Below are positions 6,436 to 59,649 of a stretch of DNA of 64,000 nt, in pieces. The number at the start of each line of letters is the position of its first letter. The stretch's first letter is position 1. The DNA comes from Carcharhinus longimanus (Eukaryota). Both the position numbers and the translations under genes were made by a program. A model generated the notes under the pieces. The model worked only from the letters and a program-made list of their open reading frames with translations. It had not been told where the DNA came from and did no database searches. The stretch is taken from contig JASCQW010000119.1 in the NCBI GenBank assembly GCA_030264375.1, positions 7,543,711 to 7,607,710 of the forward strand. The letters are read 5' to 3'.

Positions 6436-6456
6436 CTGTTACCAAGTGCAAGGAAG
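6436..6456 (+). CDS. 21-nt heptad micro-exon A1, (A)VTKCKE
   Basis: cctatgtcccatAG|CTGTTACCAAGTGCAAGGAAG|GTaaga; flanks resemble those of the exons at 38911, 41800 and 44317. Confidence 0.7.
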
Positions 6457-8613
6457 GTAAGAGAGCAGCAGATTGCTCCAATCTGACAATGGAGTTGCAG
6501 ACGCATAACTATGATGGACAGATTTTGCTGCAATGCACTCAAGCAACCTGAGGACACAGATGAAGGAATGGAGAATAATATTAGAAATGTTAGATGAAGA
6601 CATTGCGACAGTGTTGTGCAGCAGGATGTGCAATCATGCATGCACTGCACATAGATGCTTAGACAGCGAAACAACATTATTTGGAAGAGAGATGCGAACG
6701 AACACTCACTAATTGAGCCTCTTAAATATTTATGTAGTGAAACGTTATGGAAGATAATGGGTAGATATTTTCAAGGATCGAGCACTTCATAATTATAATC
6801 GATTAATTTAATAATAGGCGAAAATCGTTCGTGAACAGAGAAAGTTTTTTGAAACAATTTTTTCAAACCTTTGCGCACCTAATGTTTAAGAAATAATCGG
6901 ACCATTTTCATTTTCAAAATCAAAATCAATTAATGGTTCTATTAGTCGATGGTGAATTTATGGATCTTTTCTAAAAAAAAATCATATGCGACTGAATACA
7001 ATGCATTGGCTTAGGTGCGGGATATCAAAATGCCAGTCATGTGGCTTCAGCCGCTGTTATTGGATGGACAGTTCTCTTACGCAGGGCCATTACATGATTT
7101 GGGTAAAAATAACCCTCTAGTGAGAAGGAGAGGGACACTTATTTTGAACAAAAACACCAACGCAAAGATCCGAAAAAAAAAAATGATTATAAGATCTGCG
7201 AGACAGCATATAAATCATACCATTTAATTTGACTCTTAAGAATAAGGAATTATAAATGCAAAATGCATATTGAATCCATTCTGACCATCAATTTGTCTCC
7301 ATAATTTAAGCAAATCCTTGTTGATCTGATAATAATCTCAGATGTTTATGTTGCCTCCTTGGCAAACCGAGCACCCACTTCCTGATATAAAAAAAACAAA
7401 ACCGAGATATTCATCGTTATTTGCTTCCACGGCACTTTCAGGGAGACTGTTACAACGTTCTGCAAACAATGGAGAATTAAATATTATGCTGAATGCATTT
7501 TACTTGGATGATAGGTGTTTTCAATCTTTAACTTCTACTTCCAGGTTCTGCCCCAAAGGGAATCAATCCATGAATCCAATATGTGAATACCCCTAAGGGT
7601 ATTCAATCATTTGCACATTTTTTTTTTCGGGAAAAAAAAGCACGAATGATGCGTTACCATTTGATTCACTGATTCCTCTTTAAATTTTTAAACTTCCGGA
7701 CAATGGTCTCTGTCATTCATACATGGAATCGAAGGGAGATGCATAATTAAACTGTTCTAAATTTAACTCCACAGATGTTTCGAAGAGAGAATCCGGTCAG
7801 TGCATTTCCTCATTCGTCACTTCCAAGTGATTACGGTCACCTTTTTTTTGATATTTGAAAACATGCTGTGCATGGCTGCTCTTTAGACGCCTGCAGATTG
7901 GGAAGGATTGTAGAACAGTGTGATGACGCTTAGGTGTTCTGGCCATGTGAATTTGCCACATCGTGTCAGAGTGGATTCGCAGGGAAAATGCGTAACTTTG
8001 TGGGAATGGGACGGAGATTGGATCGTTATTGGTGCAGATAAAATGGGTCAAAAGGACTCCTCATGAATTGTAGGGGTTATAGTATCTTGGGGCGAATGCA
8101 CATCTTACCGGAAAACTTCCTTTAAAAAAATGCTGTCGACGTACAATGCTGTTTGTGTTTATTTTTTGCATGTGTGGAATGTCATTGTTCACTACCATTA
8201 GCCTTGTTTTTTGTTTCTAATTCGTCATAACATTTGCATAAACCTTCCAGGCTGCCGTCCGGATTTGAGTAAATGGTCTGTGCAAAATGTTATCCAAAAA
8301 AAAAACAGATTTCTTGAATGTTGATTGATTCATCTCCTTGACTTTAAAGCAACGTTTATGTTTCCCAATTTCCAATGTTCATCTCTGTAGCAACTCACTT
8401 TCAAATAAAGCAAATATTGGCAATTCACTTACTTGGGTACATCGACGGTTACCTTCAAACTGCGTCTTTGGCAGAAACATTGAATGAAGCGCTGGCATCT
8501 GATCCCACCATCCCGTGTTCAAATGTTTGAGTTACCGGTCAATAGTTTCTCTTATTTGTACCTGAAATCGAAATAAGATGCACCGTTTGATTATTCCTAT
8601 GTTAACTCGACAG

Positions 8614-8634
8614 AACTTGACTCTACAAAGAAAA
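8614..8634 (+). CDS. 21-nt heptad micro-exon A2, (E)LDSTKK
   Basis: ctcgacAG|AACTTGACTCTACAAAGAAAA|GTaagt. Confidence 0.75.
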
Positions 8635-8899
8635 GTAAGTGTATTGTTCCATTCGTCATTTCCTGATGATGAAAAGCTATTACTTTATAATGGCCGTTAG
8701 CACATTTTTGAGTGTTGCTGCTTAAAGTTTGTGACTAAACGGTGACATCATTCAGGCTGCACAATGTTTCTTTGTACGATTTACATTCTGTGCAATTGTA
8801 AAAAAAGCTTCCCAATGTTTATATCCCATTGAGTGTACAGCCACGTAAAATGCAATTCCAAGTAAATTGATCTAGCCGGGATCTAATCGTTTTGGTTAC

Positions 8900-9312
8900 A
8901 GATCATTTAACACTACAGTGCAGAAAGAGGCCCTTCGGCCCATCGAGTCTGTACTGAACACAATCCCACCCAGGCCCTACCTCTATAACCCTACATAATA
9001 TACCCACTAATCCACTCTAACCGATGCATCCCTGGACACTAAGGAACAATTTCTTAGCATGGTCAATCAACCTAACCCGCACATCTCCAGACTGTGGGAG
9101 GAAAACGGAGTACCCGGAGGAAACCACGTAGACACGAGGAGAATGCTCAAACTCCTCACAGACACTGACCCAAGCCGGGAATCGATCCGAGGAACCTGGA
9201 GCTGTGAAGCAGCAGTGATAACCACTATGATACCGTGCCGCCGACTACTGCGCTACCGTGCCGCCCACCACTGTGCTACCGAGCCGCCCACCACTGTGCT
9301 GCCGTACCGCCC
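8900..9312 (-). mobile_element. HE1-like tRNA SINE with CR1-derived tail and four-fold repeated 5' A-box segment
   Basis: gaggcccttcggcccatcgagtctg tail, ctgtgggaggaaa..cccggaggaaaccac core, B-box-like gggaatcgatcc; 23-bp unit x4 at 9221-9312. Confidence 0.85.
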
Positions 9313-10170
9313 GGCAGAGTATGGGTACCTGGACACGGAATTACTTATGCATTTGAAAGCTCTCCGGTATTTATCAATAAAACGAATATTCTCTTGTGAA
9401 TTAATTTTACCAAAAGAGATCAATTCACTTAAAAATATAAAATGCATCTGTCATATTTTCCTTTAAATAACGCAAACACTCCAACGGACTTCTCGTGCTC
9501 TCCGCAGAACATTAATTCGCACATAATTTTGTCTCAGCAGAATATACATTTTAAAATGCAATCGATAGGTTATAAGGGTGGCAAAGGTAGATGCAATATG
9601 ACGTGGTCGAAAAGGACGTTGTACTGAATAACTAAAGGTTGACTAGTATTGCAAATTCGGAGATTATTGAATAAGATCTTTCAGATAATGTTTTCGAATG
9701 CTGTTTTGATTGAGGTTTTTCATGTTTGGACGATAATGGTGGTCGAATATTTTCTGCATCGGCTCTTATATTCTAAGTATTTTAGCAAAACACTTTCAAA
9801 ATGCCCTCCCGATTTCAGAGAACGCTCGCAGTCCAATGCTTTCCAAAAAAAAACACGACAGATTGGTGTATTGCTTACTCAATCACCTGTTTGAAATTAA
9901 CACAGCGTTTTTGTGTTTTTCATGGTCACAGTCGTCGAACCTGTAACTTCTAAAATTCATATCAAACTGTCGGTAATTCAATTACCTGAATAGTTTGATG
10001 GGTGTCTGCAAATTTATTTATATTTTTCCTGAAACATTGAATGAAAAGCTGGCACCTGATTGCCCGATGCCTCCTCAAAAAGTTTGAATTTCCAGTCACT
10101 CAACTTTCTTGTTTTTGCATGAAATCGAAATGATTTATGATATTTAATTATTGCAATTTTATCCACACAG

Positions 10171-10191
10171 GTCTTACAAATACACAAAACG
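10171..10191 (+). CDS. 21-nt heptad micro-exon A3, (S/G)LTNTQN
   Basis: atccacacAG|GTCTTACAAATACACAAAACG|GTcagt. Confidence 0.7.
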
Positions 10192-11587
10192 GTCAGTGTA
10201 TTGCTCCATTCGCAATTTCCTCTTGATTACGGGCGAGATTTTGTGATGGTGAATAACATCTTTTGAATCGCTGCCGCTTATTGACCGTGACAAACCTGTG
10301 ACATTATCCCGCCTGCTCAACTTTTTCTTTTAAAAGAATGGACTATCTGTGCAACTCAAAGAAATGCTTTCCAAGTTGTATATCCCAACCCGCTTGCAAT
10401 CAAATTAAAAAAAAAAATGATTTCCCGGCACATTGATTTACTTCTGTATTAATATGTTTGGGTATAAATACCTAGTTACCCGGATTCTTATGAACCACAG
10501 CGCTCTGCATATTTCTCAATTCAAATAATATTTTGTTTGTTAATTCGTTACACCAAAAGCGGCGAAAATCAGATTTTCCCGCATCTTAACCACCTCATTT
10601 GTTTGCCAGCACGTTGACATATATAATTCGACTTGTGTTCTCGTCGGAACAATATTTTGCATCTAATTTTTTCTCAGCAAAAAAAATCTTCAAAAGACCC
10701 GTTTTAAGTTTCGGAATGGTAGATACAATATTATGTGTTTGAGAAGTATTTTGTATTGAATAACTGTGTTGACGAGTATTGTAGAGCAATGCGATTCAGA
10801 ACAAGTGCAGAGCTTATTGGATAACATATTTCAAACGATGTTGTCGGCATGTAGTGTTGATTGAGTTTTTTCTCGTATTTTTTGGACTGCAATGTTTGTC
10901 GATTCTCTTCACTATCCAGAATGATATAATCATAAACTCATAAGCACACTGACAAGTTACCGTCCCGAATTCGCCAAACACCGGCAGCCCAGTTCTTTTC
11001 AAAAATGTCAGAAAAGCAAAGAAGCATGCAATATTACTTCGTTGATGATAATTTGGATACTGCAACTTAAAATTAACAAGTATTTTAGAACAAAAACACA
11101 GAACGAACACAGAGCTTGTTGAACACCATCAAAAAACTGTGTCGACGTACAATGCTGAGCGATACATTTCGATTTCAGTGATTCATCTTACAATTCGATG
11201 TTGAACTTATCATGCATTTAACAAAATTCTTGCACTCGAATTCAGCAAACGTCCACTGCACATTGCATTCCAAAATGACAGCTCTCATTGATGTTTTCTG
11301 ATTGTGCTCCTTGATTTTAATTAACTTGCTCTGTATTTTTTTTTCTTCTTGATCTCAATGAGGGAATCTGCACAGTCTGAATTTTACATCAAAATTCGCA
11401 AATACAGTTGCGTAGACATTTGAGTGGTTATGCCGAAATTGCAGTTATTTTTCTGGAAACATTTCATGAAACGTTGCCCGATTTCTCGTCAAAATTGTTT
11501 TGATTCACCGACAGTCTTATTATTGGTACATTAAATCGCAGTGAGATTAAAAAAAAACTTTAGCGATTTCACTTGTAATCCCACAAG

Positions 11588-11609
11588 ACTTCACGATAAA
11601 AAAAACAAC
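11588..11609 (+). pseudogene. Decayed micro-exon at the equivalent position of unit 3
   Basis: cccacaAG|ACTTCACGATAAAAAAAACAAC|GTaacg: positional homolog, but 22 nt with a weak acceptor. Confidence 0.5.
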
Positions 11610-12705
11610 GTAACGTGTATTCACGTACAACCATTTGCATTTGATTTTGGCTTTTTTTTTGTGAATGACGGCTGCTGAAAGGTCGGACTAAACCTATTAT
11701 GTTAGGTAGCTTGACAAAGGTCATGCTGTCAGACTGTACAGCCTGTGCAACCGAAATAAAGAAAACAACATTTCCCAAATGTATATCCCATTTTGCTTGC
11801 AATTAAATAAATTACACCCTTTGAATTCCTGCAACTTGATCTTCAACAGGACCAACATCTTTGGAATTATGTAGTTGGGCACTGAGGCAAATATGAACCT
11901 CCGTCCTCTGCAGTATTTCTCAATTGAAATAATACTTTGTTTGTTAATTCGTTTCAATTGAGGGGGATACATTATCATTTGCCCACATTATATTAAATCT
12001 GTCATGTGTCTGCCGTTAACTTGTCACAATAATTGAAATTGTTTCTTGTCTTCCTGTCAGAAAATTAATTTGCACGTAATTTTCCTTCGACAAAAAAAGG
12101 CCAAATTGCAACTGATATTCTGTGAGCGCGTGAAACATCAATTCTATATTAATTGGTCGAGAGGTACTTTGAATACGATAACTTCAGATTGACAAAAGTC
12201 GCAATAGATTCAGATCAGTAATGAATGCAGAGCTAACTGATACCTCCCTTTCACAGGACGGTAAATGTATGCAGTGCAGACTGCGTGTTTGGACTGCAAT
12301 CATTGTCGACTGCCTTCAGTTTTGCTATCAGAATTATGATAAATTGAGTCATACCCTTCCAAGATTCCCATCGGTTTCAGGAAAAGCCCGCTTATAAAAA
12401 TATTGCACGATGACAAATTGTTATATTCTTTACATATTCACTACCGTATATTTAACGCACCATTTGTTTTCGTCATGCTGCCGCTGTTGTATCTGTAAGA
12501 GCTGAAGCATCGCTAAAAAAAAACTTACTTTAGCGTTTGATTGTCTTCAAATGCTGATTTTGGCAGAAACGCTGATGGGAGCGCTGGCATCTGATTGCCA
12601 GATTCATAGTCCAATTGTTTGAATTGACGGTCACTCTTCTCTCTTATTTATGCATGAAATCGAAGTTTGATGCAAAGTTTAACATATGCAATTTGAACCT
12701 CACAG

Positions 12706-12726
12706 AACTTAAGAAAACACAAAACG
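12706..12726 (+). CDS. 21-nt heptad micro-exon A4, (E)LKKTQN
   Basis: aacctcacAG|AACTTAAGAAAACACAAAACG|GTaggt. Confidence 0.75.
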
Positions 12727-23200: not shown

Positions 23201-24908
23201 AATCGAGAACTCACCATTATCAGTTAGTATTCTGTTTTCATTTCCAATGCTTTGATAACTCCATAATGAAATAATACATTTCCAATGTGTTGCACTCATC
23301 ACAGTTGTAGCTCAGTGTTTCGTGTCAGAGATCCCCACAATGTCAGGGTTGTCGCCAAGGTTGAGTATTTAATTTCAGTTTGTGGCCATTTACTTCCAAA
23401 TGTTTTTCATTTCAAAACAAAATAAAAAACATATTCAGCATATTTCTCTTGCTCCATACAGAGGTGACAGCGTGCAAAAATGGAAAGGCATCTATATCCA
23501 GAATCTATTTTCATTTTGAGTGTGGAATGGGAGATTCTGAACGCTTGTAACAAAGGATCTATCTGAAATGTCCAACGTAGTTGTTGCATGTAAATTCATC
23601 TAATTCAGGTTATGCATTAGCCGTGACAAAAGAATTGAAATTCGCAGGCGTTATTAATAATCGGTGCAACGCTGCTCATTTTACAAATCAGTCACATGTT
23701 TAATGGACGAGAAGCAAAGAGTGCAAGCTTTGTTCAAAAACACACAGACGTGTCTGTTACGTTGCCTATTATCGAGTAAGATGAGTAAATTAGTCCACAG
23801 ATGTGCAACAAGGGATACAATGTGAACGCGAGAGACAAAGACCTAAGTGGATTCAATCGAACGTAGAAGAAACGGTAGCGAAACATATTGCAAAATCAAC
23901 AGATGAATGAGATCGAACAGACAATTTATATTGGTTAGAGAGGCAGAAAAGTAGCTGAATTCTGGGACAGAAATGTTTTCCGTCATCCCATACACGGGAG
24001 AGAGAGAGAGAAAGAGACGAAAGGAGTGAGTGAGGGAAATAATTACCAGAAAATGTCCGCCCGAATAATTCGAACGGTCAGCAGAAATATAATATTTTTT
24101 TTCTTGTGCTGTGTCTCGAGGTGATGCCAGTATTACGCTCAAACTCTATGTCGGCTTTCAAAGTATGCCCCGAGTAAAATTTCCGCACAGTTCTTTTTCA
24201 CGTGTCGTTGTTATTCAAGGGCGTAAATCCCTGAGTGTTTTCTTGGATTGGCATTACTGGCGTTGAAGGAACTTCCCTTATTTTAGTGCAACCTGTAAGG
24301 GATGGTCGAGACGCTTGGCCTCACGAAGTAACATGTATTGCTGTCATTTTGTCATGTGGGTTGAAATCATTTTTGCAACGAGCACGAAGACATCCCGGGC
24401 GAAACAGTGTCTTTTCATTTGTTTAATTTGTTTTTTATTTGGCATGTGGTTCGTGCAGGTTTTTGTGCGTTTATGCAAGAATCCAGCAATCATCAGGCCA
24501 AATCTTGCTTAACTCAATTCTGGCAAATTCTGTCTATTTATATGTGTATTCTTAAGAGTGCCTCTTCCGTAATAAATAGGTATTACTGCTATTCTGTGGA
24601 CAACATTTTATGAAATATATTCGCTGGCCAGGCCAGCCTGTCCATTCCACCTTGTCCATGAAAAGTTGTTGGTGATCTGCAATTTTGTACTGTTGAAGAC
24701 CCTGAGGTGCACACGCACAGAGATAGAAACGCGCGCGCGCACACGCACACACACACACACACATTTAAGGAATAAAACACGCACATTAAAATAATTTAGG
24801 GAATAGTAAAAAAAAAGCTCTTCCACCGTGAAAAACAGAAAACTGCTGACTAGCCACAATGTCCACGCTCGTCATAATCTTGCATACTTCTATCAGTACG
24901 CTCCCCCG

Positions 24909-32799: not shown

Positions 32800-33044
32800 T
32801 AAGAACATAAGAACATAAGAAATAGGAGCAGGAGGAGGCCATCCAGCCCTTCGAGCCTGCCCTGCCATTCAATAAGATCATGGTTGATCTGTCGTGGCTC
32901 AGTTCCACGTTCCCGCCCTGTCCAATAACCCTTAATCCCCTCGCTAATCAAAAACCCATCAACCCGCGACTTAAAAATATTTAGCGAGGCAGCCTCCACC
33001 ACTTCAACGGGCAGAGAATTCCAGAGATTCACCACCCTTTGAGT
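32800..33044 (-). mobile_element. Young CR1 3' end
   Basis: VNLWNSLPVEVVEAASLNIFKSRVDGFLISEGIKGY plus (agaacata)n tail. Confidence 0.95.
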
Positions 33045-36000
33045 NNNNNNNNNNNNNNNNNNNNNNNNNNNNNNNNNNNNNNNNNNNNNNNNNNNNNNNN
33101 NNNNNNNNNNNNNNNNNNNNNNNNNNNNNNNNNNNNNNNNNNNNCGAGATTTAATGTTTTACAGAAATACGTTGTCTTTGGATTTGTATTGTTTGTTTTC
33201 CTTTCTTTCTCCTGCTCTGAGCTGGTAGCTAAATTTTCACGATGACAAATAAGCACGGCAGGAATATGTCTCAAATACTACAGTCAGCAAATGGATCCTG
33301 GTAGCGAATCCTGGAGTAAAAGAAAAACTGTCCTTTGAAATCATGAAGATTGCGAATCACGTGCAAATCAATATGTTGCTCTATTATTTCAAGCTGAGCG
33401 TGATACAGTTTTAAGTTGCTATGTTGTATCTTCACGAGTTAAAACTGCGCGAGATCTCGACAGAATTGATTTTGTTTGTTTCTGATTAGGTCGCTTGTGC
33501 ATAATTTGTGCACACATAGAAAGATAATTTCAAGGAAATCCTAATATGTCCATCTTAATTCACAAAAGAGCAAGACGTTCAGTTGACCGAACAATGAGTA
33601 ATGCAAAATTCTACAGGTGTTTGGAATGGGACGTTTTCCGTAAGATATTTTCGGGACCACATCAAAAACTCTAACGTAGATCAGAAAGTTTTCTTATTTC
33701 CCCCTTTTTTAATTTGACATTACATTAACAAAGAACATTTCCACTGAACCACTCGGTAGTTATTATGGAAGCAAAATCAATTTAACAACAGGTAACATAA
33801 CATGAACAGAACAGCGCAAAGTTCCCAGTTGAAAATACTTAAAGATGACACAATGTAATTCTTAGTAACTATTTATGTCTGCACTTCCAATGCCAGCAAC
33901 AACAACAAAGACATGCATTGTTCTTCAGCGGAAGGTAACTTAAAACAACAACAACACCAAAAGCAGACACGATTGCTAGAGTTCCAGCCACAAAAACCCA
34001 CATGACAGATAAAGACATGCGTGCCTCTTCTGACTCTCATGCAGCAACTTCGAGGGGAAAGAAATGGTATGCCACATATCCCAATATCCAAATGGAGCAA
34101 AAAAGAAACAGTAAAAGATATCTCGCTCTAAGTAGCCCTAGCATCTTCATGTAAATGAAATTCCAGTTCCGTCTTTCTTTTTTTTCTCTCTGACAATCAA
34201 CATGATCAAATTTACTATCAAAAACAACAACGAAGGGGAGACTAAAGTAACTGTGTAGAATCATTCCTAATATTGCCAATCGAAAAGAACAATTTACCAA
34301 TTAGGATGAATAATGTTGTGTCAAGGCCTGCCCGTTAGCGATGAAATGACACACGGAAATGGAACAAGCTGCTGAAACAATACTTGAACATGAAATATGG
34401 CACGAACGTATTTTAGTTCACTGTATCGTCAAAGATATTGGTTTGCAGATATGATCATAAACGTTCTAAATATATACATTTCTCTAAAGCATGAAAGCCA
34501 GAAAACAGACATAACCAGTTTCAAAATTTAAGGAAGTTGAGAAGCAGCCTTGTAATAAGACCAAGTATATTGTGCCTTTTAACATTCTCATCTCCCTCTC
34601 GTTCTGTATGATGGAGTTTATCCATCCATCCATCCATATATACATGCATACATACATATATCTACATCCAAAAATGTATCCATGCATCCATGACCTCACC
34701 TTTGTTTTTTTGGATGAAAGTAAGTCACATCTTGAAACTAAATTATTTGTCTTCATTCGTCCATCAATAATGACTAACAACTCCAGCGATTCTTGATCAA
34801 AAGTGGATTTTGCTCTTTCGAGCAAATCTCTCTCCGAGAACAGTATTTTCACATCAGAAAGTCAGCATCGTTTAACCACCTCCAATTCCACCGCGAGATA
34901 GATTAATCTATCCATCCCTCGATTGGATGAGAGACTGACAGAACGCTACATGCATACAATTCGTTCCGATTAAGCAAACGCACAGAGACCTATGTTTCTA
35001 CGAAAGGTTTACGAATGATACGGCATGACTTACTGGCAAATGTCCTTGTTATGTTAGGAATACTTGTTTGAAATCACTTGTGACTACTATTGCCTGACCC
35101 AACCAATTACTCTGTCATGCGGATTTGAAAATATCCTTATTTTTTGGTCGAATTCAATGAGCAATGTGATTAATTGTAATGAAATACTTTGCGCTCGCAT
35201 TAAAATTTCAAATTTGACTTAGCCACGACATTACATAATGTATGAAATGTTACATGAGACCTTCCAAGCAAAGGCTTTCAGAAATATATCAACCCGCTGT
35301 TCTGTCCGCATAATCTTTACAACCATAACGAGATGCATCATCTAATGTGTGACATGATAAACATTAACCACATTCAAAACTAAATGTTCAGTTAAATCAG
35401 AGAAAATAAATGTGCATGTCATTTCCAAGTCGTGTACTTTTTCAACATTTGAAGAGTAGGTCGGCACATCACAGATCAGGACTTTTTTTTTAAATGATGC
35501 CACCCATATCTCAGATCTATTTTCTCTGACCCTGCGTTTGTAAAATGCTATAATCCGCATTCTGCGAGAAATCTGAAAATATTTTTACTTTGCTGTGTTT
35601 CATCAGAACAAATTGGTTGTCGAAATTTCCGCAGGTGATACAGGCTCCAATGGTTAATTCTGGTTCACTCGCCACGGCGTCTGCTTGGCATGCTGAAAGT
35701 GTTTTACATTTGCTGCTTCTTGAATCTGCCGTCTAGGGTTCGATACGAAGCGGAGCAGCAGTTTGGAGTACCCTACAACGCATTCTCATTTGCATACTTC
35801 TTTTTTTCAAATTGGAAAATTACCAATACAAATTTGACCAACAATCTAGTTCTTTCATTTATCAAGGATTTTTTTGGGTGACGATTTCAAAACTAGTTCA
35901 AAATTAATGCCAGAAACCGTTTCATTTATTGATGAAAGCCATGGTACGAAGTCATGGACGCTGCTAATCTAAAAACAAACGACGCGAATGGCATTTGTTG

Positions 36001-36224
36001 TTTTAAAGGCAAATATTGCTAAGAGCCTCACACAAAATGCATAACATTATGCAAAATAACATTGAAATCTGATACTTTTGCCTGAAAAAAAAATCAGAGT
36101 AATCACTTTGACGATGTGTCATTTGAGTTTTAAATTCGTATTGTATTATCTGGGTTCTGCTGATGTTTTTTACGAAAATAGAATATGATCAAAGTCTTTA
36201 CTACATGTTTTTTATGCTCCACAG

Positions 36225-36245
36225 ACTTGACAAAGTGCCAATCTG
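36225..36245 (+). CDS. 21-nt heptad micro-exon B1, (D)LTKCQS
   Basis: tttatgctccacAG|ACTTGACAAAGTGCCAATCTG|GTaggg. Confidence 0.8.
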
Positions 36246-37289
36246 GTAGGGATGACGTCGATTCATTTTGACTGTCGTATTGGTTTGGTCTGTTTTATTT
36301 TGGCACGTGTATTAATTGATTGCACCAAGCTCTTTTTTTCATCCTATGTGCCAATCAAAAGATGAAATGTACGTTATCAAACTGATGACTCACTCGAAAT
36401 TGATATTTTCAGTGGAAGGGTGAAAGATTAATGACATGTTTGCATTCAGACGTACAATCGGCCTCAGTTATAGCGCGTCGGCAGCGTGGCATACATACAC
36501 TTTATTAGAATTCCGTACTGCAAGTGATGCGAAAGGGATTCCAAAATAAAACATATGATCAGCAAATTGGGCTAAGGAAAACGGAAAGACGATACGATCT
36601 GAAATGGCATGAAAACAGCACATCAAAGCTTGTTAGTACACGAGGACAGGAGAGGCAATGTTATCGGGGCGTCTTGGTAGTGATAGTTTCTGTGCATGTG
36701 TTTGTTTGCCGGGGCACACAGACGGGAGCGGTGCATTTCAGGTGGAAGCAGAAGAGAGATCCTTTATTTTTGTAGTGGAGACATTTCTATAAACAAAAAA
36801 GGAGATACTAAAAGACAAACGTGGAGACATTCATAAGGAGACGACGAGATTTTTTTTTGTTACAAATCAAATATCACATACAACAAATGAATTACGAAAG
36901 GTAAAGACGTCAATGCCAATACCCATCGATATACAAGGGCGAGCAAATCGGAATCCAAACTACATTCATAGTGCTCATTTGAAATTGTATTAATATATAT
37001 CGATTTATCGAAAATCTGAACATGTGATGAAATTCAACTCCACATAAATTTGAGAATAGTAGCCGATCTATTTAAGCCACACTTCGCTCTGCACCTCTTA
37101 GTTCCCCTGAATCAACGAGACTTACGCAAATACCGAACTTGTTTAGTTTGTTTATGACTATCATAATTAACCTTAAAGAAACACTGCTAAGAATTGACTG
37201 TGGAACTTCAGGAGCCGCCTTGCTGCGGCGACTGTTCAGATATAATAGATAGAATAGAAATAGAATACAGCACGGCTGATTGCATTAAG

Positions 37290-38220
37290 AGCCCTGCCTC
37301 TTATGGCTGTTGACACAGAGATGAGTGGGAAAGCAAATTGGGTGGAGGACGCAGACTTGGATAGGCTGAGTGACTGGGCGAGGATCTGGCAGATGGAGTA
37401 TAATGTTGGCAAGTGTGACGTTATCCACTTTGGAATAAATAATAGTAAAATTGACTATTATTTAAGTGGTGATAAATTACAACATGCTACTGCGCAGAGG
37501 GACCTGGCGGTCTTTGTGCATGAATCACAAAAAAAAAAATCTCGGTTTGCAGGTGCAGCATGTGGTCAAGAAGGCAAACGGAATGTTGGCCTTTATCGCG
37601 ATGGGGATGGAGGATAAAAACAGGGAGGTCTTGCTGCAATTGTACAAGGTACTGGTGATGCCGCAACTAGAGTACTGTGTGCAATTTTGGTTCCCTTAAG
37701 GATATATTGGCCTTGGAGGGAGTGCAGAGAAAGTTCACCAGATTGATACCAGGGATGAGGGGATTAGCTTATGAGAAGACATTGAGTAGCTTGGCCCTGT
37801 ACTCGTTGGAGTTTCGAATGCTGAGGGGAGATCATATAGAGACATATAAGATAATGATGGGGCTAGACAGGGTAGAGGCAGAGATATTATTTCCACTTAG
37901 AAGGGAAACAATAACTAGAGCGCACAACCTCAAAACAAGGATGAATCAATTTAGACCAGATTTGAGGAGGAACTTCTTCTCTCAGAGGATAGTGAATCTT
38001 TGGAATTCTCTGCCCATAGAAGCAGTGGAGGCTACCACGTTATATGTGTTTAAGTCACAGGTATATAGATATCTGATCAAAAAGGGAATTAAGGGTTATG
38101 GGGGACAGGCGGGTATGTGGAACTGAAACACTATCAGATCAGCCATGATCTTATTGAATGGCGGGGCAGGTTCGAGCGCTGGATAGCCTACTGCTGCTCC
38201 TATTTCTGATGTTCTTATGT
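37290..38220 (+). mobile_element. 5'-truncated CR1 inserted in unit 1 of the array, splitting the old SINE
   Basis: ORFs 37303-38126 (DLDRLSDWARIWQMEYNVGKC, LEYCVQFW, RRNFFSQRIVNLWNSLP); absent from the paralogous site at ~41090. Confidence 0.93.
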
Positions 38221-38910
38221 TTTCAGATTGTGGGAGGAAACCAGTGTAGTCGGAGAGAACCCACGCAAACACAGGGAAGACTTGTAGGCTCCACAGGGAC
38301 AGTGAGCCAAGTCGGGAACTGAACGCTGTTACATTATATTTTGAGGATTTCACAGGAACTACTGTGCCAATGCGTGCCATGACCACATGTCTGAATGAAA
38401 ACAAAATCCAAACAGGTAATATACTTGTATCAGGTATCTTCTGCTTGTGCACTTATTGGTAATGCACAAGTACTCGAAAACTAGATCTCACTTTTGAACA
38501 TTGGAGAAGAATGCAATTACATTAACAAATTTACACCTGACTATTCAGTTGACCCGGAAAATACAATTGACATGATTACTCAATAATTGCAAAGTTGTGT
38601 TTTTCAATTTATAGATCTAAAAAGAGCATTTACAAGAACATATTGATCTAAAAAAAGCTCTTCAAAATGCAGTCTCTGAAATTGGAACACTACGTCCATT
38701 TTTCTATGACATTGTTTCCAATGAAGTCACTATAAATTATTCAATATAATAGTGACAAATTGGAGGCACAATAAACCAATTCTCCTTTATTTTTCAGTCG
38801 TTGTGTTAATGCTCAACCTTGGATTTACGTTTTATATTGTTGGGTATTGTTTGACAATAACAAAATGAAAAATATGTCGATGCTCACACGAGTGTTTCTA
38901 TGCTCCATAG

Positions 38911-38931
38911 AACTTGCAACACGCAATTCTG
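38911..38931 (+). CDS. 21-nt heptad micro-exon B2, (E)LATRNS
   Basis: tatgctccatAG|AACTTGCAACACGCAATTCTG|GTaagg. Confidence 0.8.
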
Positions 38932-39416
38932 GTAAGGAAGCAAACACAAAAATCCGACAACTGGATCTTGGGAGATATCAGTAGAGTTCATCGGACGTAT
39001 CAAGTGTTCTAATTGCCTGACAAGAAGGCACAAAGTGTTCGAACATCAGGCTGTTTGCAATGGACACTTCATTGTTGGCCCAGACGAATAGATTCTATTC
39101 CTGTATGTTTGTCGCAATTTGGCGCCTATGGGTTTCTCCAGAGATACAGAATAGGAACCTTTATTTTGACGTCTGAAAACCAAGCAAAATCCATCGAGAG
39201 ACTATATTAAAAAAGTAAATATGAGTACTTAATAATGTTCTGTTATCTAAATCGCTGACCTAATGGATGCTCAAAGAAGTTATACACCTTTTGACTATTT
39301 AACATGAAATTTGAGCTGTGTATTTCGTTTTAATGTATTTGTGCTGTTACTAATATTCCAAAAAAAAACCCAAAATCTGTTCTCTACCTTATACATATAT
39401 ATCTTATGCATCACAG

Positions 39417-39437
39417 ACCTGTCAAAGTGCAGAAACG
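39417..39437 (+). CDS. 21-nt heptad micro-exon B3, (D)LSKCRN
   Basis: gcatcacAG|ACCTGTCAAAGTGCAGAAACG|GTagga. Confidence 0.8.
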
Positions 39438-40212
39438 GTAGGAAATTACCAATCCATTGTGGAATATATTGATAATGACTGTGTCACTTTCGGAGAGATT
39501 GTACCTGAGTTACGAAAAATGCAATTTAATGTGTGTCTATATATATACTTAGTCTTTCAATTTCTTTACAAAGTTGTCATGCGTCATTGATGTACGTCTA
39601 AAAATTTCACTGAGAGCTGAACTGTTGAATACCGTTTTCATCGAGAATGTGAAAGGGTGAAAGAATGACTGATTGATAAGTGAGTTGTGGATCTTTAATA
39701 ATCAGAGAGACGAGTGTTTTTTATGCGTACGCAGTCTGAGATGTGAACGTGAAGTTTACGAACAAAGAACTACAAGTAAAGACACATTTTCAAGCTGGTA
39801 GAGATGACCTCGATTCATTTTGTCTGACGTATAGGTTTAGTCTTTCTTGTTATGGCATATGCGTTAATTGCACTGCGCCAAATATTTTTAATTTCCTATG
39901 TCTAAGCCGGAAGATGAAATGTACGTTCTCAAGCTGATGGCTCACTTTATTATTATTATTTTTATTGGAACGTTGAAAAACTAACAACATGTTTATATTC
40001 AGACTTCCAATGGACTTCAGTTATGGGGCGTTGGCACTGACATCCCATGTATTTTCTTAAAACTCTGCACTGCAAGTGATGCGAAAGCGAAAGTGATAAA
40101 AAATAAATATATGATCGGCAAATTGGGCTAAGGAAGACAGATAGATTACGTGATCTGAACTTGCATGTAAACAGCACATCAAAGCCGTTTAAATGCACGA
40201 GGACAAGAAAGA

Positions 40213-40547
40213 CAGTGTTACCAGGCTGTCATGATCGCGATAGTGCACGTGCATTTGTTCGTGTGGCGGGGCACACAGGCAGTTTTACCAGGATGTCTTG
40301 ATACCGATAGTGTGTGTGCATTTGTCTGTTTCGTGGGGCACACAGGCGGTGTTACCAGGATGTCTTGATAGCGATAGTGTGTGAGCATTTGCTTGGTTAG
40401 CGGGGCACATAGGCAGTGTTACCAGGATGCCTTGATAGCGATAGTGCGTGTGCATTTGTTTGTTTAGCGGGGCACACAAGCGGTGTTACCAGGATGTCTT
40501 GTTAGCGATAGTGTGTGAGCATTTGTTTGTTTAGCAGGGCACATAGG
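40213..40547. repeat. Minisatellite, 5 x 67 bp
   Basis: Units begin at 40213, 40280, 40347, 40414 and 40481 (c[a/g]gtgttaccaggatgtcttgatagcgatagtg...ggggcacacagg). Confidence 0.95.
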
Positions 40548-41799
40548 CGGTAACGGGGATTTTGGAAGAAATAGAGAGACCTCTAGTTTTTTTTTTATTT
40601 GTAGCGGGGAAATTTCTATGCACAGGCAAGAAGCCACTGACAGACAACGGTGGAGACATTCATAGTGAAATGACGAGAGTATTTATCACAAATCAAACCT
40701 CATATACGGCAAATTAATTATGAAAGTTAAAGACTTCAATGCTATTACATATTGATATTGGGAGGCTGAGAAAATAGGAATTCAACAGACATTCAAAGCC
40801 GCTCATTTGCCTTTTATTAATATTTATGCGAGCGAAAATCTGAACATGTGATGAAGTTCAACTCTACGTACATTTGAAAGTAATAACACATCCATTTAAG
40901 CCACACTTCGCTCTGCACCTCTCTGTATTCTTGAATCAACGCGACGTACTCCAATAGCGATCTAGTTTAGTTTATTTATCACTCTCACGATTAACCTTAA
41001 ATGAACACTGTTGTGAATTGACTGTGGAACTCCACGAGCCGCCTTACTGCGGCGACTGTTCAGATATAATAAATGAGAATAGAACACGGTCATTGGAATT
41101 TAGAAGCACGCCTTTCAGGTCGTAGGTGGAAACCAGTGCAGCCGAAGTGAACACATGCAAACACAGGAAGGACTTGCAGGCTCAACAAGGGCAGGTGAGC
41201 CAAGTCGGGAATTAAACACAGTTGCATAGCATTTTGAGTCTTCCACACGTAATACTGTGCCACTGTGCGGCATGAGCTTACGCCTGAATGAAAAAAAATC
41301 AAATATGTAATATATTTGTATCATTTATCTTGCACCTGTGCACTTATTGAAAATGCACAAGTTCTCGAAATCTCGACATCACTTTTGAAAATTAGATGAA
41401 AAAGCGAATAAATTAACATAGCTACTCCTAACTGTTCAGTTCACCATTAAAACATGATTGACATGATTACTAAATATTGGTTAAGTTGTGTTTTTTTTTA
41501 CCGTTATTGGATCGGAAAACAGCATTGCCAAGAACATATTGAAATAGAAAAAAAAACTTCAAAAATCAAACTCTGAAAGTTGGAACACAACGTTTTTTTT
41601 TCCTGTCGCTTTGATTGCAATGAACTCACTCTAAATTATTCAGTATAATCGTGACACATTGGAGGCATAATAAAGCAATTTTCCTTTACTTTCCAGTTAT
41701 TTTCCCAATGCCGAACCTTGGATTTACATTTTATGTTGCTGGGTGCTCTTTGACTATAAAGCATGTAGATTCTCACACAAATCTTCTCATGTTCCATAG

Positions 41800-41820
41800 A
41801 ACTTACATCATGCAACAAAG
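41800..41820 (+). CDS. 21-nt heptad micro-exon B4, (E)LTSCNK
   Basis: catgttccatAG|AACTTACATCATGCAACAAAG|GTaagg. Confidence 0.8.
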
Positions 41821-42298
41821 GTAAGGAAGCAAAACAAAAATCCAATAACTGAGTCTCGGGCGAAATTAGGAGAGTACGAACGGTCGTGACAAGTTCTCTT
41901 ACTGCCTGGAAATAAGGCACAGAGTGTTGGATCAGCAGGCTGTTTGCAATGGACTCTTCAGTCTTGGCTTCGAAGGAGAGATTCTATTTATCATTGTTTG
42001 GTGCAGTTTGGCGCCTACGCGTGTCTGCACAGATACAAAATAGGTACCTTTATTTTGACGTATGAAAACCAGTAATCATCCATAGTGAGACTGTAAGAAA
42101 ACGAATACTAAATAATGTCCTGCAATCTAAATCGCGGACCGAAAGAATGGTCAAAGAAATCATACACATTTTGAATATTTAATTCGAAAATTGACTGTTT
42201 TATTATCTCTTTTTATTCTTCTGGGGCTATTGTTAATATTCCTAAGAAAACTGAATCTGTTCACGACGCTGACTATGTATATATTTTGTGCATGACAG

Positions 42299-42319
42299 AC
42301 CTGGCAAAGTGCAAAAGTG
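42299..42319 (+). CDS. 21-nt heptad micro-exon B5, (D)LAKCKS
   Basis: gtgcatgacAG|ACCTGGCAAAGTGCAAAAGTG|GTaaga. Confidence 0.8.
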
Positions 42320-44316
42320 GTAAGAAATACAGAGTCCATTATGGAAGCGACTGTGTCATTTTCGGAAAGTTTATTCCTGAGTTATGCCGAATATATATGT
42401 ATTTAATGTTATAAATTTAATAATTGGCAGGGCATCAATGGCTTTACCGAAGTTGTCATTCGTCATTGATGCAAATCTAAATGTTGCACGGAGAGTTGAA
42501 CAACGTTTTCATCCAGAATGCCAAAGATTGAAAGAATGACTGATTGCTAAGTGAGTTGTGGAACGTTGATAGTCAGAGGGACGAGTGCTTTCTTTACTGC
42601 GTGCACAGTTTGAGATACGAACGTCAAGATTACAAACAAAGAATTGCAAACAAAGACTCAGGGCCAAGCTGATAGAAATGATCCAGATTCATTTGTACTG
42701 TTTTCCCCCGTTCCATTGTGGCTTATGGACTTAGTGTATTATGCAAAAAAACCCATAATATATACTATATATATATTCTACCTGTATGTCAAACTATGAA
42801 AGGTATATTATCAAACCGATGTCTCACTCTAAATTGCAATTCGTCAAACCGTTAAATGTAGAGCTAAGTGCCGTTTTCACTCGGAGGATGGAAGATTGAT
42901 ACACATGTCTGCATTCAGATTTACAATTAACCTCAATAATGACGTGTTGGCAGATTCACTTTCTTCAGCCTCTATATTGCCACCGATGGGAAAGTGAACT
43001 TGATACACAGACACGGGCAAATGCAGAGGGAGAGACAGAGTGCTATCCGAAAAAGAGTTTTGATCAATGATGATGTGTGCACATTGGTATGTATGACAAT
43101 GTGCGTGGGTAGTGCTGAGGCTGCTAAATTGGAAACATTTTGTGGAAACATTTTGTAATGGACTCAACAAGCGATTGACACGTAATTGTGGAGAGAGAGA
43201 GACAGTGAGAAGGCGATCGCGTTCGTTACAAATCAAAAATTAGATACATCAATTGAATTACCAAAGGTAAAGAATTTTAAAGCATTACCCATCGACATAC
43301 TGAGTGTGAACAATGGGAATCCAGCAACCGTTCAAAGCTGTTCATTTGCCATCTATCGAATATTTAGAAATATAGAACAGAGAACCTGAACATGTTCTAA
43401 AATGCAATGCGTCCGAAATTTGAGACTAATTCTCTAGCCATTTAAGCCACAATTCACCCTGTACATCAAGACATTCTCCAATACTGATCCTTTTTTTTTA
43501 ACTGTCATAATTAAACATAAAATAACACAGGAGTGCAGTGACTGTGGAACTCCCCTGATCAGCTTATACCGACGCCTGATCTAACGACATGAGGGAGAAT
43601 GGAGGACGGCCAATGGATTTAACTAGCACATGTTTCCGACTGCGGGAGAAGTCAGAACAGCTGGAGGAAACCCACGCAAACACGGGGAGAACATGCAGAC
43701 TGCGGATGGACAGTAAGCAAAGTCATGAATTCAACCTGGCACCCTGGCACAGTGAGGCAGTCATCCTAACTACTATGCAACTGTGCATTCTTAGCATCTT
43801 TTTGAAAGGTAAAAGAAAGAATCCAGAGACACAATACATTTATATCCTCTTTACTGACCTTGAATATTTATTATTACAGAACACGATCCCAAAAATAACT
43901 CGACCTTTTTTTGAACTTTCGATGAGAAATATATTAATTTGATAAATTTTCTCCTGACCGTCCAGTCCATCTGTAAAAAAAAAATGGTTTAATCCCCAAT
44001 ATTGGTGCTTTTTTTCCCCGTTATTGCACCCCAGAACAACAATATCAAGAACGTATCGAAATCAAAATTGCTTCAAGTTGGCAACGCTACATGCATTATT
44101 CTGTTGCTTTATTTTCATTGAAATCGTTATACATGACGCAACATATAGGTGCTCAATTCGACGCATCATCAAACTGTGTGAATCTTTGTAATGTACTTTC
44201 CAGTTTCTTCGTCAATGTCCAACCCTGGATGCCTGATTCTCAGTGTTGGACGTGTTTTTATCTGACAAAATAGAATATATGCAGATATTCACAAGTCTTT
44301 CCTTGTACCCTCACAG

Positions 44317-44337
44317 ATCTAGCAAAGTGCAACAGTG
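44317..44337 (+). CDS. 21-nt heptad micro-exon B6, (D)LAKCNS
   Basis: gtaccctcacAG|ATCTAGCAAAGTGCAACAGTG|GTaagg. Confidence 0.82.
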
Positions 44338-44810
44338 GTAAGGAATCACTGATAGGGAAATAGATAACCGGATATTGGAAGAAATAGTAGAAGTCGATTG
44401 GGGATGACAAGTGTCCTTACCGACTGGCATCAAGGCTCATTGGCACGAGAAGCAGAGTGTTGGAGCAGCAGGTTTTTGACAATGGGCTTCTTCATTATCG
44501 GCCTGGGCGAACAAATGCAGCATCCTTGACGACTCGAGGTCACACCAAAGCTAGAGAATAGATACCTTTAGCCCGAGGCATGAAACCAAGGCACATGCAT
44601 GGAGAGGCAAAAAAAAACGAGTACTTAATAAAATCTTGCAATCTAAATCTCTTACCTAATGAAAATTCAACGAAAATGCTCGAATTTTAGCGACCTATCA
44701 TCAAATTCGAGTTTATCAATTTCTCTTCACTGCAATTGGGCTCTGATTAATGTTCCTAACAAAACAGAATGGGTTCATTGTACTGATTGGATGTATCTTA
44801 AGACTCACAG

Positions 44811-44831
44811 TGCTGGCAAAGTGCAACAATG
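44811..44831 (+). CDS. 21-nt heptad micro-exon B7, (V)LAKCNN
   Basis: agactcacAG|TGCTGGCAAAGTGCAACAATG|GTaggg. Confidence 0.78.
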
Positions 44832-46269
44832 GTAGGGAACAAGTAATTCAGTATAGATTATGTTGATAGAATTATTTCAGTAAAGATATATTGATACCTT
44901 ATATTGACAGAGAGTTTTAAAAACGTTTCTTCTTAAATTATGCAAACTATTTTTGAATGTCTGTATGTAAAAAAAAAACAGAGTATCAAATTGATGGCTC
45001 AAGCGAAGTTGACATTCCTTATTACTATAACGTTCTTCGGCGAGTTGAATGTCATTTTCATTGAAAACGCGAAAGGTTGAATGAATGCCTGATTTCAACA
45101 CTTCAATGTAGATGAGTTGTGGATCTATAATAGCTTGAGAGACGAGTATTTATTTTTTAATCCGTGCACAGCATAAGATGTTAGGTTGGTTGCAGACGAA
45201 GAAAAGAACATATTGAAGAAATGAGCTTCATAAAGGGGAAGGAGATTATCATTTCGTAATGGCAGACTCCCTAGGGTCTTAAAAAGAGATAACAATAAGG
45301 ACATTAAGGTGTAAAATGCCTCAGATAAAGATAAGCTGTATGTTTGTGTGTACTTGTTTTCAAGTGGTTGGGAAGCGTACGGTAGTGGCAAAGGTACAAT
45401 GTCAGAAATGTAGGAAATAGGTTAGAACAGGAGAGAGAACTGTACAATCTATGAATCAAAGAAATAAATAGACACGTAACCTATAGCTGCCCACAGTTGT
45501 GGAGGTCAATGCATATAGAGAGATAACTACCATGTTCATCAGATAGCAAGCCGCTGATACAATGAAATGATGCGTTAATATTTATAATTAGGCACAAAGA
45601 ATGATTGTAGGAATACTTATACAAGTTTGAACATCGCATGTTGTTAACTGTCAGATGGTGAGCAGAAAATTCATAACTGTAGGATGAAATATCTATTTGT
45701 TTTAAAATGGCAATGAATTCCTTGAACATGTACTCAACTTCAATGTCTACGCAAATGAAATGGAAATTGTTCACCCATTTAACCTACAATTCTCTGTAGC
45801 TCTTTCTACTATAAAAGGCAGGAGGCATGTTCCTTTCCAGATTACCTTCCATCAGGGGAGAAACAGAATTTTCAGATACGCAAAGTGTGTGTTCTGTTGT
45901 CACGAGATGGAACTCACCTGAGTTACCTCCAAAACATCTCAAAAATCTATTCTCACCTTTTGGCAAGCTAATTGAGAAACAATATTCCATAAATGCTGCT
46001 GCTTGTTAAGATTCATTCAAACAGCCATAACTTTGGCTTAGTTATTAAACACTGCTGCAATTTAATGAGATCTCAAAAAAAATTAGAAAAAATTAAATTT
46101 TCCTGAGGAAATCACAGCCGCCTTCATTATTTTACGCCCACTTCTTGTTTTCCCCTCTCCGTTCATTTTCTTTGCCGAAGAATTCACGACAAACAATACG
46201 ATCCCATCATTGTGAAAGCGGATGCATTTTCAACCATGAGTAATAGAAATTTACTCCTGTCTTATCCAT

Positions 46270-56645: not shown

Positions 56646-56666
56646 ACCTGAAGAAGCGCACCGATG
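56646..56666 (+). CDS. 21-nt heptad micro-exon C1, (D)LKKRTD
   Basis: tttccaccacctAG|ACCTGAAGAAGCGCACCGATG|GTaagg. Confidence 0.75.
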
Positions 56667-56774
56667 GTAAGGCTGATTTAAACTCAACATTTATTTGCCT
56701 CAAATTAATATTGCCTTTTTATTGGCAACAAAGATTTCTGCCATGTCAATTTATATTGCTATCTACTGTGTCGT

Positions 56775-57010
56775 CTGTGGCAAGGTGGCACAGCTGGTAG
56801 AACTGCTACATCACTGCACAAGGGACACACATTCGTTTCTGACTTCGGGTGAAGGCCTGTGTGAAGTTACACACTCTTCCAGTGACCGTGTAGAATTTCT
56901 CCGGGTGCTCCGGTTTGTACTCAATGTTCCGGTGAGGTAGATTGGCAATAGTATTTTGTCCCTTAGTGTCAGAGGAATTGACATGGCAAATCCTTGGGGC
57001 TACGGTGATA
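56775..57010 (+). mobile_element. Eroded tRNA-derived SINE
   Basis: gtggcaaggtggcacagctggtagaactgct head; ttctccgggtgctccggttt core. Confidence 0.7.
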
Positions 57011-58238
57011 CCTAGATTTATCTGTGCATGGCCTTGTACTAATTCAATGATACTACATGTCATAAAGTTGGAAGTCTCTAACTATACAGCAGAATTAAAT
57101 TGTCAATCAGTTATTCCTACAGAGACCAGAGAATAAAGCCAATTAAGGCAGAGGATAAGGCTATCCGGCCCTTCCAGGCCTGCAACTACTTTGCCACCCG
57201 ACAGATCTAAAACCATTTACCCTTCCAGGAACGATGTAGCTCTATTCCCATCATATTCATTGATCTGACTGCGAATTCCAGGCACCCACTACCCGCTCTT
57301 AAAAAAAATCTCGAACTTCCAATGTTGGGGTAAAAAAAAACGCTGACAAAAATAATTACACAGAAACTGCGGCAGCTTTGTCAAACTGACCAATTCGCAA
57401 ATGCATCAACACAAAAGTTTAAAAGGTGTAAATAACAAAGAATTGTGGAACTGACGAATGGATACTAAAAAAAAACTTTCACCTCGGAGTGGATGGACTG
57501 TAATTGGAAAAAGAGTCAACATTCTTCATTAATTTTCTTCAAACACGACCTTAAATGTTCTCAGCACAGATCAATTGCAGAGGGATTAATATGCCGCAGT
57601 TTAACGAGGGGACCACGTTACACACTGAAATCACAATCTGGAAATTCTGATTGCTTGTCTTCCTTTCAGAGAGTCGACATTCTGCAGTTCCCTCGAATTA
57701 GAGTTTATCTCTGAACTGATGTTGTCACTTCTGATTATTTATAATGCACGATTAATTGTGCTGCTCTTGATTCAACACTCTCGCAAACATGGTGTTCCCG
57801 ACAGAAGTGAAAGATTACACTGCCTCTCAGATGCAACACAGCATACTTAATAAGTGATTGCAATGCAATTCACCAGGGTGATGTAAATGCCAGAAAATCT
57901 GAAATGTTATACTGACATCGGTCATATTATCCCTGTTGAAATTGTGTTGATCATATCATGATAGCACCAAGGACGCTATGACGTAAGATTGAACGGGGAA
58001 CAACACCTTGTGACGTGTTAATAAAAAATCCCTTATCAATTTGTTGCAAACGCATTGTGCTGGATAAAAAAAAAAAATACTGTTATGAACCATGCCGCTT
58101 GAGCCCTGCCATTTAGCTTTTCCTTCCTTCTTCAAAATTCAGTCGAGGACTAAGATTTTACGTCAATGGATTCAGTTTGATTCGCTTAGAAATGTAATAT
58201 CTTCAAAATGTTCTCCTTAATTCTCTTCTTCCTCACAG

Positions 58239-58259
58239 AACTGACGAAGTGCCAAAGTG
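58239..58259 (+). CDS. 21-nt heptad micro-exon C2, (E)LTKCQS
   Basis: ttctcttcttcctcacAG|AACTGACGAAGTGCCAAAGTG|GTaagg. Confidence 0.85.
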
Positions 58260-59548: not shown

Positions 59549-59649
59549 CCAGTTTACCGCTAGAAATGTCACGACATCCAAAAATCAGCGTGACATCCAT
59601 TGACTGTCATCCTTCGGATCCGCCATAAATGACATATTTTGCACTGGAC

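Follow-up and report, generated by a model that had tools for sequence, protein, structure and literature searches.

Old tandem duplications of two-exon cassettes and selection on splicing in a putative coiled-coil gene of the shark Carcharhinus longimanus

The window analyzed here is a 64,000-nucleotide stretch of Carcharhinus longimanus DNA (contig JASCQW010000119.1). We consider it likely that this region represents the middle of a shark gene with a coiled-coil segment, in which old duplications were followed by selection on splicing, frame and core residues, and in which copy number is now frozen. The host gene that we somewhat favor would be a receptor of the butyrophilin/BG type, with its tail encoded here and its anchor exons outside the window. 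The mechanism has already been published for chicken BG genes and the main claim is not new; the lineage, a shark, is new.

Seven exons of 21 nt flanked by AG and GT were identified (Table 1); they belong to a longer array, which numbers about 16–18 such exons over the window. All seven are phase 1-1; when they are spliced in order, the phase-1 frame contains no stop codon and the other two frames contain two and three. Like exons are spaced 2512–3192 nt apart, donor scores are 7.0–11.5 bits in all seven, and the Leu codons in exon order are TTG, CTT, CTG, CTT, CTG, CTA and CTG. With cut-offs of at least 2.5 bits for the acceptor and at least 7 bits for the donor, 16 candidates of 21 nt were detected on the forward strand, compared with an average of 0.84 (maximum 3) for other lengths between 10 and 120 nt and with one on the reverse strand. 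At the loosest cut-off, phase 1 was open in 17 of 17 candidates, the figure for a random six-codon stretch being 73%. A profile trained only on seven exons outside the seven-exon region placed the seven at the top (26–33 bits), with the next match at 3.5 bits and the best reverse-strand match at 8.1 bits. Thus, the seven exons with AG/GT borders and an open frame that an earlier note on this DNA had described are real, as judged from their excess over chance and from the profile ranking.

Table 1. Array exons, repeat units and associated elements in the window
Feature	Position	Strand	Remarks
Upstream array cluster	6436..12726	+	exons at 6436, 7775, 8614, 10171, 12706
Decayed 22-nt exon copy	11588..11609	+	within upstream cluster
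A-type 21-nt exon	23462..23482	+	probably dead; donor GA, not GT
B0, 21-nt heptad exon	36225..36245	+	lone; duplicated block starts about 4 nt inside
Repeat unit U1	36229..39780	+	intron p, SINE-like piece, exons A1 and B1, head of C1
LINE 3' fragment	37300..38220	+	in U1 only
A1, 21-nt heptad exon	38911..38931	+	Arg at usual Cys position
B1, 21-nt heptad exon	39417..39437	+	
C1, junction piece, 63 nt	39735..39797	+	weak acceptor (3.4 bits); first full codon is a stop
Repeat unit U2	39781..42655	+	exons A2 and B2
Minisatellite, 67 bp	40215..40551	+	5 copies, 85% matches, in U2; U1 has one copy only
A2, 21-nt heptad exon	41800..41820	+	
B2, 21-nt heptad exon	42299..42319	+	acceptor 4.2 bits
C2, junction piece, 63 nt	42609..42671	+	stop at first full codon; donor dead (AT)
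Repeat unit U3	42656..45183	+	older copy; 61–64% identical to U1/U2
A3, 21-nt heptad exon	44317..44337	+	
B3, 21-nt heptad exon	44811..44831	+	weakest acceptor, 2.7 bits
C3 head	45172..45183	+	weak acceptor and stop; homology limited to about 12 nt
Remnant of further p-type intron copy	45723..45808	+	trace of fourth unit start; E 1.4e-6
Two downstream 21-nt array exons	56646..58259	+	at 56646 and 58239

The proposal that the array grew by tandem duplication is supported by three units, which derive from two old duplication events. The same note had described two-exon cassettes: three of these are present, but the seventh exon (B0) stands alone and the repeat begins inside it, the unit junctions lying within this exon and not in introns. 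U1 and U2 are 77% identical, and both unit halves agree (0.762 for p0/p1 and 0.776 for q1/q2, with 0.61–0.64 for the third copy). The divergence and many intronic indels noticed earlier were likewise recovered, introns being 64–78% identical and each pair showing 18–30 gap openings in about 1.45 kb. A block that starts inside B0 and reaches the C segment underwent two ancient duplications, U3 having split first and U1 and U2 later. Two A+B pairs were gained in this way, that is, four heptads or 28 residues, corresponding to about 4 nm of coil at the established rise per residue. The first junction may stem from crossing-over between B0 and the degenerate exon-like C segment, and extra exon copies would be tolerated because the exons are frame-symmetric. 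The LINE fragment in U1, which we take to be CR1-like, is a true insertion with flanks collinear with U2. We rejected the idea that the units stem from a duplicated haplotype or an assembly error of this kind, given their 61–78% identity within a gap-free contig (33145–51831) and the collinear LINE flanks. Dating at the epaulette-shark pedigree mutation rate, given as 7e-10 per generation in a section of PMC10587355, was also rejected: 0.137 substitutions per site would need about 2e8 generations, which is impossible, and the duplications are therefore datable only as 'old'.

Selection on the splice signals and frame of the exons is supported. In a neutral simulation, based on three units only and thus of low power, the probability that all six duplicated exons would retain both AG and GT, their length and an open frame was 5.5e-4; retention of the splice dinucleotides had a P value of 0.005 and donor matches (38 of 42) one of 0.008, whereas the absence of indels (P 0.23) and of stops (P 0.49) was unremarkable in each case on its own. 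Selection at the Leu/Cys core is weakly supported by two core-codon changes compared with 8.6 expected (P 0.035), the core codons having been picked after the family was seen. The array also carries an internal control: both orphan copies of the B0 donor have decayed, from 8.2 bits to 3.7 and -5.8 bits, and the exon donors have not. The comparison of exon plus splice sites with 30-nt windows of the unit alignment, as proposed in the earlier note, was passed modestly, with identities of 0.72 and 0.80 against a background mean of 0.62 (16% and 2.6% of background windows were as high; joint P 0.013). In the unit alignment the exon bodies were not clearly conserved, A lying at the background median and B in the top 9%, and those of the upstream cluster were less conserved than their own flanks (0.54 vs 0.63). 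The pN/pS ratio was 0.84, with 27.5 amino-acid-changing differences compared with 29.1 expected. Hence, the earlier claim of purifying selection stands for splice signals and frame but not for protein sequence in general, and its argument from synonymous Leu codons is weak: Leu in all six copies has a P value of 0.13, and only two synonymous Leu changes fall inside the true duplicate series. On this statistical evidence, splice signals, frame and hydrophobic core appear to have been maintained by selection since the duplications, and the five outer heptad positions to have been changing at neutral speed or faster.

The pN/pS value would also suit a gene that is dead, as a whole or in this part, in which the exons have persisted as relics by chance and the duplications had no effect on a protein. 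The two decayed copies elsewhere (11588 and 23462) and the lack of an anchor exon in 64 kb point the same way, and a function lost only towards the end of the branch (length 0.137) would escape detection. However, the improbability of the kept structure under neutrality, the decay of orphan but not of exon donors and the open frame of all 17 candidates make this reading very unlikely. The cassettes might, on the other hand, still operate as a length switch, units being gained and lost between alleles and exons regularly skipped, as in chicken BG1/BG0; this is the earlier note's proposal in its full form. Skipping would preserve the frame, all exons being phase 1-1, and some acceptors, such as those of B3 and B2, are weak; passages of PMC5043582 describe skipping in a three-exon repeat of BG0 and a four-exon repeat of BG1 that changes between alleles. 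Nevertheless, in the single haplotype of the window, U1/U2 identity stays flat at 72–83% across 200-nt bins and shows no sign of a converted patch, and the longest exact matches between units are 29, 15 and 15 nt, far below the 134–232 bp and 300–500 bp segments reviewed for efficient recombination, events on fragments of <50 bp between close repeats also being on record (PMC2583991). We regard a live switch as unlikely, and ongoing allelic copy-number change, as far as the sequence indicates, is also unlikely; allelic variation like that of BG1 is disfavored by the 77% identity and the 29-nt longest match. Frequent unequal crossing-over appears unlikely between units so diverged, and therefore copy number is probably fixed. 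Loss may now proceed by decay of single exons, as the two decayed copies would suggest.

Each exon encodes one heptad with the pattern [D/E]-L-x-K-C-x-x, in which Leu and Cys would occupy the a and d core positions of a predicted coil. Hydrophobic residues are found at codon 2 in 16 of 18 exons and at codon 5 in 11 of 18, compared with 2 of 72 at codons 3, 4, 6 and 7; Cys occupies codon 5 in 10 of 18. Binomial P values for this stripe were set aside, the exons being related. Many 21-nt heptad exons whose first codon is split (1+2), a hydrophobic stripe, variation concentrated at the five positions outside the core and the presence of Cys, which forms occasional clusters in BG, are shared with chicken BG genes as described in PMC5938342 and PMC4046983. 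According to the same sources, BG tails have their core at codons 4 and 7, whereas the shark core lies at codons 2 and 5, with 0 of 18 exons hydrophobic at codon 4 and 0 of 18 at codon 7, so that the BG a/d register is absent; the shark array also differs in that Cys is its usual core residue and in counting 16 or more intact exons in 52 kb. BG genes have a single IgV exon and a transmembrane exon upstream of the tail and no B30.2 domain after it. As in the chicken BG1/BG0 tails covered in passages of PMC5043582, many small exons encode the coil and multi-exon repeats change its length; the BG1 four-exon repeat is thought to result from unequal crossing-over within an exon, and the shark junction also lies within an exon. 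However, the BG1 repeat varies between alleles (13–21 exons), whereas the shark units look frozen, contain two exons each and are accompanied by no visible anchor exons in the window. Few heptad repeats characterize mammalian butyrophilins (PMC5938342, PMC8813856), in contrast with 16–17 intact candidates here, seven of them in one gap-free contig. Butyrophilins have IgV, IgC and a transmembrane segment before the heptads and B30.2 after them. PMC12841164 and PMC8813856 report that the heptad stretch of mammals is short and precedes B30.2 and that the heptad number after the transmembrane segment differs between species (squamates), whereas the shark has a long run and no B30.2, IgV or IgC exon of this gene in the window. 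Butyrophilins have been reported in cartilaginous fish (part of PMC12841164).

The coil could instead lie outside the cell, as the disulfide-linked stalk of a type II lectin or of a tetherin-like or secreted protein, and not form a cytoplasmic tail; the duplication story would be unchanged. Type II lectins and tetherin-like proteins have an N-terminal transmembrane segment, an extracellular coil with interchain Cys and a C-terminal lectin domain or anchor, and Cys at coil core positions fits interchain disulfides. The frequent Cys at codon 5 and the register unlike BG favor such a stalk, but long runs of 21-nt split-codon exons are a hallmark of BG tails, some of which also contain Cys clusters (both from passages of PMC5938342), and no lectin or other domain exon was seen in the window either; we consider it a possible, not a probable, alternative. 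The C pieces raise another question. The last 17 nt of C1 copy the end of B0 (12 of 17) and its donor has decayed to 3.7 bits, and the tail of C2 is also B0-like (13 of 17). If these pieces functioned as alternative last exons, or as poison exons, and were duplicated together with each cassette, the coil could end after unit 1, 2 or 3. An acceptor AG (3.4–3.6 bits) is preserved in all three and their first full codon is a stop (TGA, TGA and TAA), and a passage of PMC5938342 indicates that the stop may sit at the start of the last exon in BG genes. Yet chance alone preserves an intronic AG in all three units in 26 of 76 cases, the density of poly(A) signals around C is that of the background, further exons lie downstream and searches with the C frames gave nothing real, which leaves this reading quite doubtful. 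As coding exons the C pieces were rejected: a word-index search gave 0 of 28 candidates at E ≤ 10, and the two matches of a full HMMER search (one TPR-CHAT protein), made through many short repeated stretches, were attributed to chance. We are similarly skeptical of a shark BG-like receptor whose long Leu/Cys tail, with its shifted exon register, arose independently of the bird BG tail, and in which the stop-bearing acceptors of the cassettes would set length in two-heptad steps without allelic copy-number change.

The window adds an old record, datable in order, of coil growth in a cartilaginous fish, and in this record selection on splicing and frame outweighs selection on sequence. Should the exons on either side encode IgV and a transmembrane segment without B30.2, long BG-type tails would also occur in a lineage remote from birds; more than one origin would then be suggested by the shifted register, which bears on the open question of the role of BG tails. 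No paper joining butyrophilin, shark, heptad and exons was found in the literature searched, which lay mostly outside subscription journals.

Pfam scans of all 61 ORFs of at least 90 aa (three trimmed at N gaps), 140 forward-strand ORFs of 58–89 aa and 110 reverse-strand ORFs of 60–89 aa returned only a HEPACAM2 Ig exon, a single weak match to reverse transcriptase and two matches below threshold that were put down to chance. Thus, no IgV, IgC, B30.2 or lectin domain exon of the array gene was detected among these ORFs. B30.2 had no match in the 61 longer ORFs, and just 5.7 kb lies after the last exon; no IgV and transmembrane exons were seen upstream in the window, and the gene may start before base 1. 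A transmembrane scan of the window gave two unconvincing segments, Atlas searches of the ORFs at 4023–4352 and 30993–31307 gave no match at 0.9 or more, and Rfam gave 0 matches. The window is interrupted by four N gaps and by one foreign insert, which makes a single uninterrupted gene over the 52 kb putative. HEPACAM2 was rejected as the host gene, since a single exon is present and lies in a foreign CpG-poor block. No other neighboring genes that might speak to linkage with the MHC chromosome, a feature of butyrophilin and BG genes, were seen, and this HEPACAM2 exon, the only Ig exon of the window, is misplaced.

All seven 21-nt exons described in the earlier note (starts 36225, 38911, 39417, 41800, 42299, 44317 and 44811) were present with their flanking AG and GT inside one gap-free contig (33145-51831), and splicing them in order gave no stops in the phase-1 frame and 2 and 3 stops in the other frames. 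Using generic splice-site scores, we identified 16 candidates of 21 nt on the plus strand (other lengths, mean 0.84) and 1 on the minus strand; at the loosest cut-off, 17 candidates of 21 nt were obtained, all of them open. When a profile was built from seven other exons lying outside this set, the seven noted exons took the top ranks by a wide margin. On the basis of this candidate excess and the profile ranking, the array exceeds the seven exons first noted (see table). About one of the three less certain candidates could be due to chance, and the A run in the 22-nt copy may reflect decay or a base-call error. Of 18 exons, 15 had a charged codon 1 and 16 a hydrophobic codon 2; codon 5 was hydrophobic in 11 (Cys in 10), and the remaining four codons were hydrophobic in 2 of 72 cases. 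This pattern is that of a heptad with Leu at position a and Cys at position d. At 51000-51120, an acceptor-like site is followed by about 40 open codons, with a 42-nt stretch whose end resembles those of two upstream exons but lies at a GA; this is probably a chance occurrence.

Self-alignment of the window delimited three tandem repeat units (U1-U3). In each, an intron of 473-485 nt separates exons A and B, and a junction piece (C1-C3) lies about 300 nt past exon B. U1 and U2 were the younger pair in both unit halves (identity 0.762 and 0.776), and U3 was 0.61-0.64 identical to either. Two ordered duplications added four frame-symmetric heptad exons, which would lengthen a dimeric coil by about 4 nm. 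The duplicated block begins about 4 nt inside exon 36225, and the ends of C1 and C2 copy the last 17 nt of this exon (12/17 and 13/17 identical) plus its donor. In all three C pieces the acceptor is weak and the first full codon is a stop; the first junction might have arisen between exon 36225 and such a degenerate exon-like segment. Since the last duplication, a LINE fragment has entered U1, and a 67-bp minisatellite of five copies has arisen in U2. The upstream cluster of the same array (7637-12830) grew separately from a one-exon unit and comprises five units, four with an intact 21-nt exon. Flank homology to exon A (6436, 23462 and 58239) and to exon B (36225) indicated that duplication has been recurrent over a long time.

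Array exons and repeat units in the window
Feature	Position	Strand	Basis or remark
Further array exons	6436, 7775, 8614, 10171, 12706, 56646, 58239	+	splice scores, profile
Less certain array exons	19666, 28526, 48281	+	strong 21-nt phase 1-1; without flank homology to others
Broken array copy	11588-11609	+	22 nt, with A run
Broken array copy	23462	+	donor GA
Repeat unit U1	36229-39780	+	self-alignment
Repeat unit U2	39781-42655	+	self-alignment
Repeat unit U3	42656-45183	+	self-alignment
Trace of fourth unit start	45723, 86 nt	+	self-alignment

With regard to purifying selection, as previously proposed, identity of exon plus splice sites was indeed higher (0.72 for A and 0.80 for B) than that of random 30-nt windows (mean 0.62), with 16% and 2.6% of 1377 windows, respectively, scoring as high (three aligners concordant; P=0.013 jointly). 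Both end dinucleotides and length were retained across the three units in 63 of 1392 random 2+21+2 windows. Under a neutral model simulated 20000 times along the intron tree (branch lengths 0.137, 0.137 and 0.388; 41 indel events), the probability of six exons all being intact was 5.5e-4, and retention had P values of 0.005 for splice dinucleotides considered alone, 0.008 for donor motifs and 0.035 for core codons. Splice signals of the added exons were retained (donors of the seven exons, 7.0-11.5 bits) and orphan signals decayed, the two orphan copies of the exon 36225 donor (8.2 bits) falling to 3.7 and -5.8. Exon bodies without splice sites lay at the background median for A and in the top 9% for B. 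Pooled pN/pS was 0.84 (27.5 amino-acid-changing differences vs 29.1 expected), and non-core codons changed at a rate at least neutral (25.5 vs 20.5). Leu in six of six exons had a neutral P value of 0.13, and the absence of indels and of stops had values of 0.23 and 0.49. In the upstream cluster, identity was 0.64 for exon plus splice sites vs 0.63 for flanks, and lower (0.54) for exon bodies. Thus, constraint acts on in-frame splicing of the exons and, weakly, on the core stripe, with little power at n=3 units; a recent loss of function would leave no visible trace in these tests.

Allelic copy-number variation had also been suggested. The longest exact inter-unit matches were 29, 15 and 15 nt, and the U1/U2 identity profile was flat (72-83%), whereas efficient recombination segments are, according to a review, 134-232 bp in cultured cells and 300-500 bp in human meiosis, with exceptions below 50 bp known for close repeats (PMC2583991). 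Thus, ongoing allelic change is unlikely, and copy number would now be fixed at this locus. Overall, the exons of the earlier note were confirmed, and the interpretation given to them was supported in part. Chicken BG tails are built from 21-nt exons whose first codon is split, with a core at codons 4 and 7 and variation mostly outside the core (PMC5938342). The shark locus works in the manner of such a tail but differs in register from that core. Another report describes butyrophilins in cartilaginous fish and variable heptad number in squamates (PMC12841164). The mechanism is already known from chicken BG genes; the lineage is new, and the units here look frozen and use another register. No IgV, transmembrane or B30.2 exons were found within the 64-kb window, and we withhold assignment as a BG gene; the host gene may well be of butyrophilin/BG type.

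The DNA source is, by its sequence, a shark: the third Ig exon of HEPACAM2 (15495-15791), the sole recognisable domain exon of the window, was 97% identical to Scyliorhinus torazame and 96% to Stegostoma. No other HEPACAM2 exons were found across the 64 kb. Its CpG-poor block (14594-18871; CpG o/e 0.18-0.37 vs about 0.5-1.05 over most of the remaining window) is flanked by the halves of a single reverse LINE copy and by an N gap, and is probably a misplaced or misassembled insert unrelated to the heptad exons. Introns surrounding the latter (2800-14000 and 33000-47000) had a CpG o/e of about 0.6-1.05, unusually high for vertebrate non-coding DNA. An open frame of 110 codons (4023-4352; strong acceptor at 4057) had no Pfam or atlas match and could be a degenerate coding sequence read on its opposite strand. 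The GC-richer region 29500-32300 contains several ORFs of 90-200 aa without Pfam or atlas support and presumably resembles a decayed LTR-type element. An old direct duplication (59596-60106 and 63012-63507; 65% identity, 3.4 kb apart) carries no 21-nt exon candidate. Finally, an inverted repeat occupies 25772-26902 (about 465 nt, 94% identity, about 200 nt between arms); it is either a fold-back of recent origin or an artefact of assembly.
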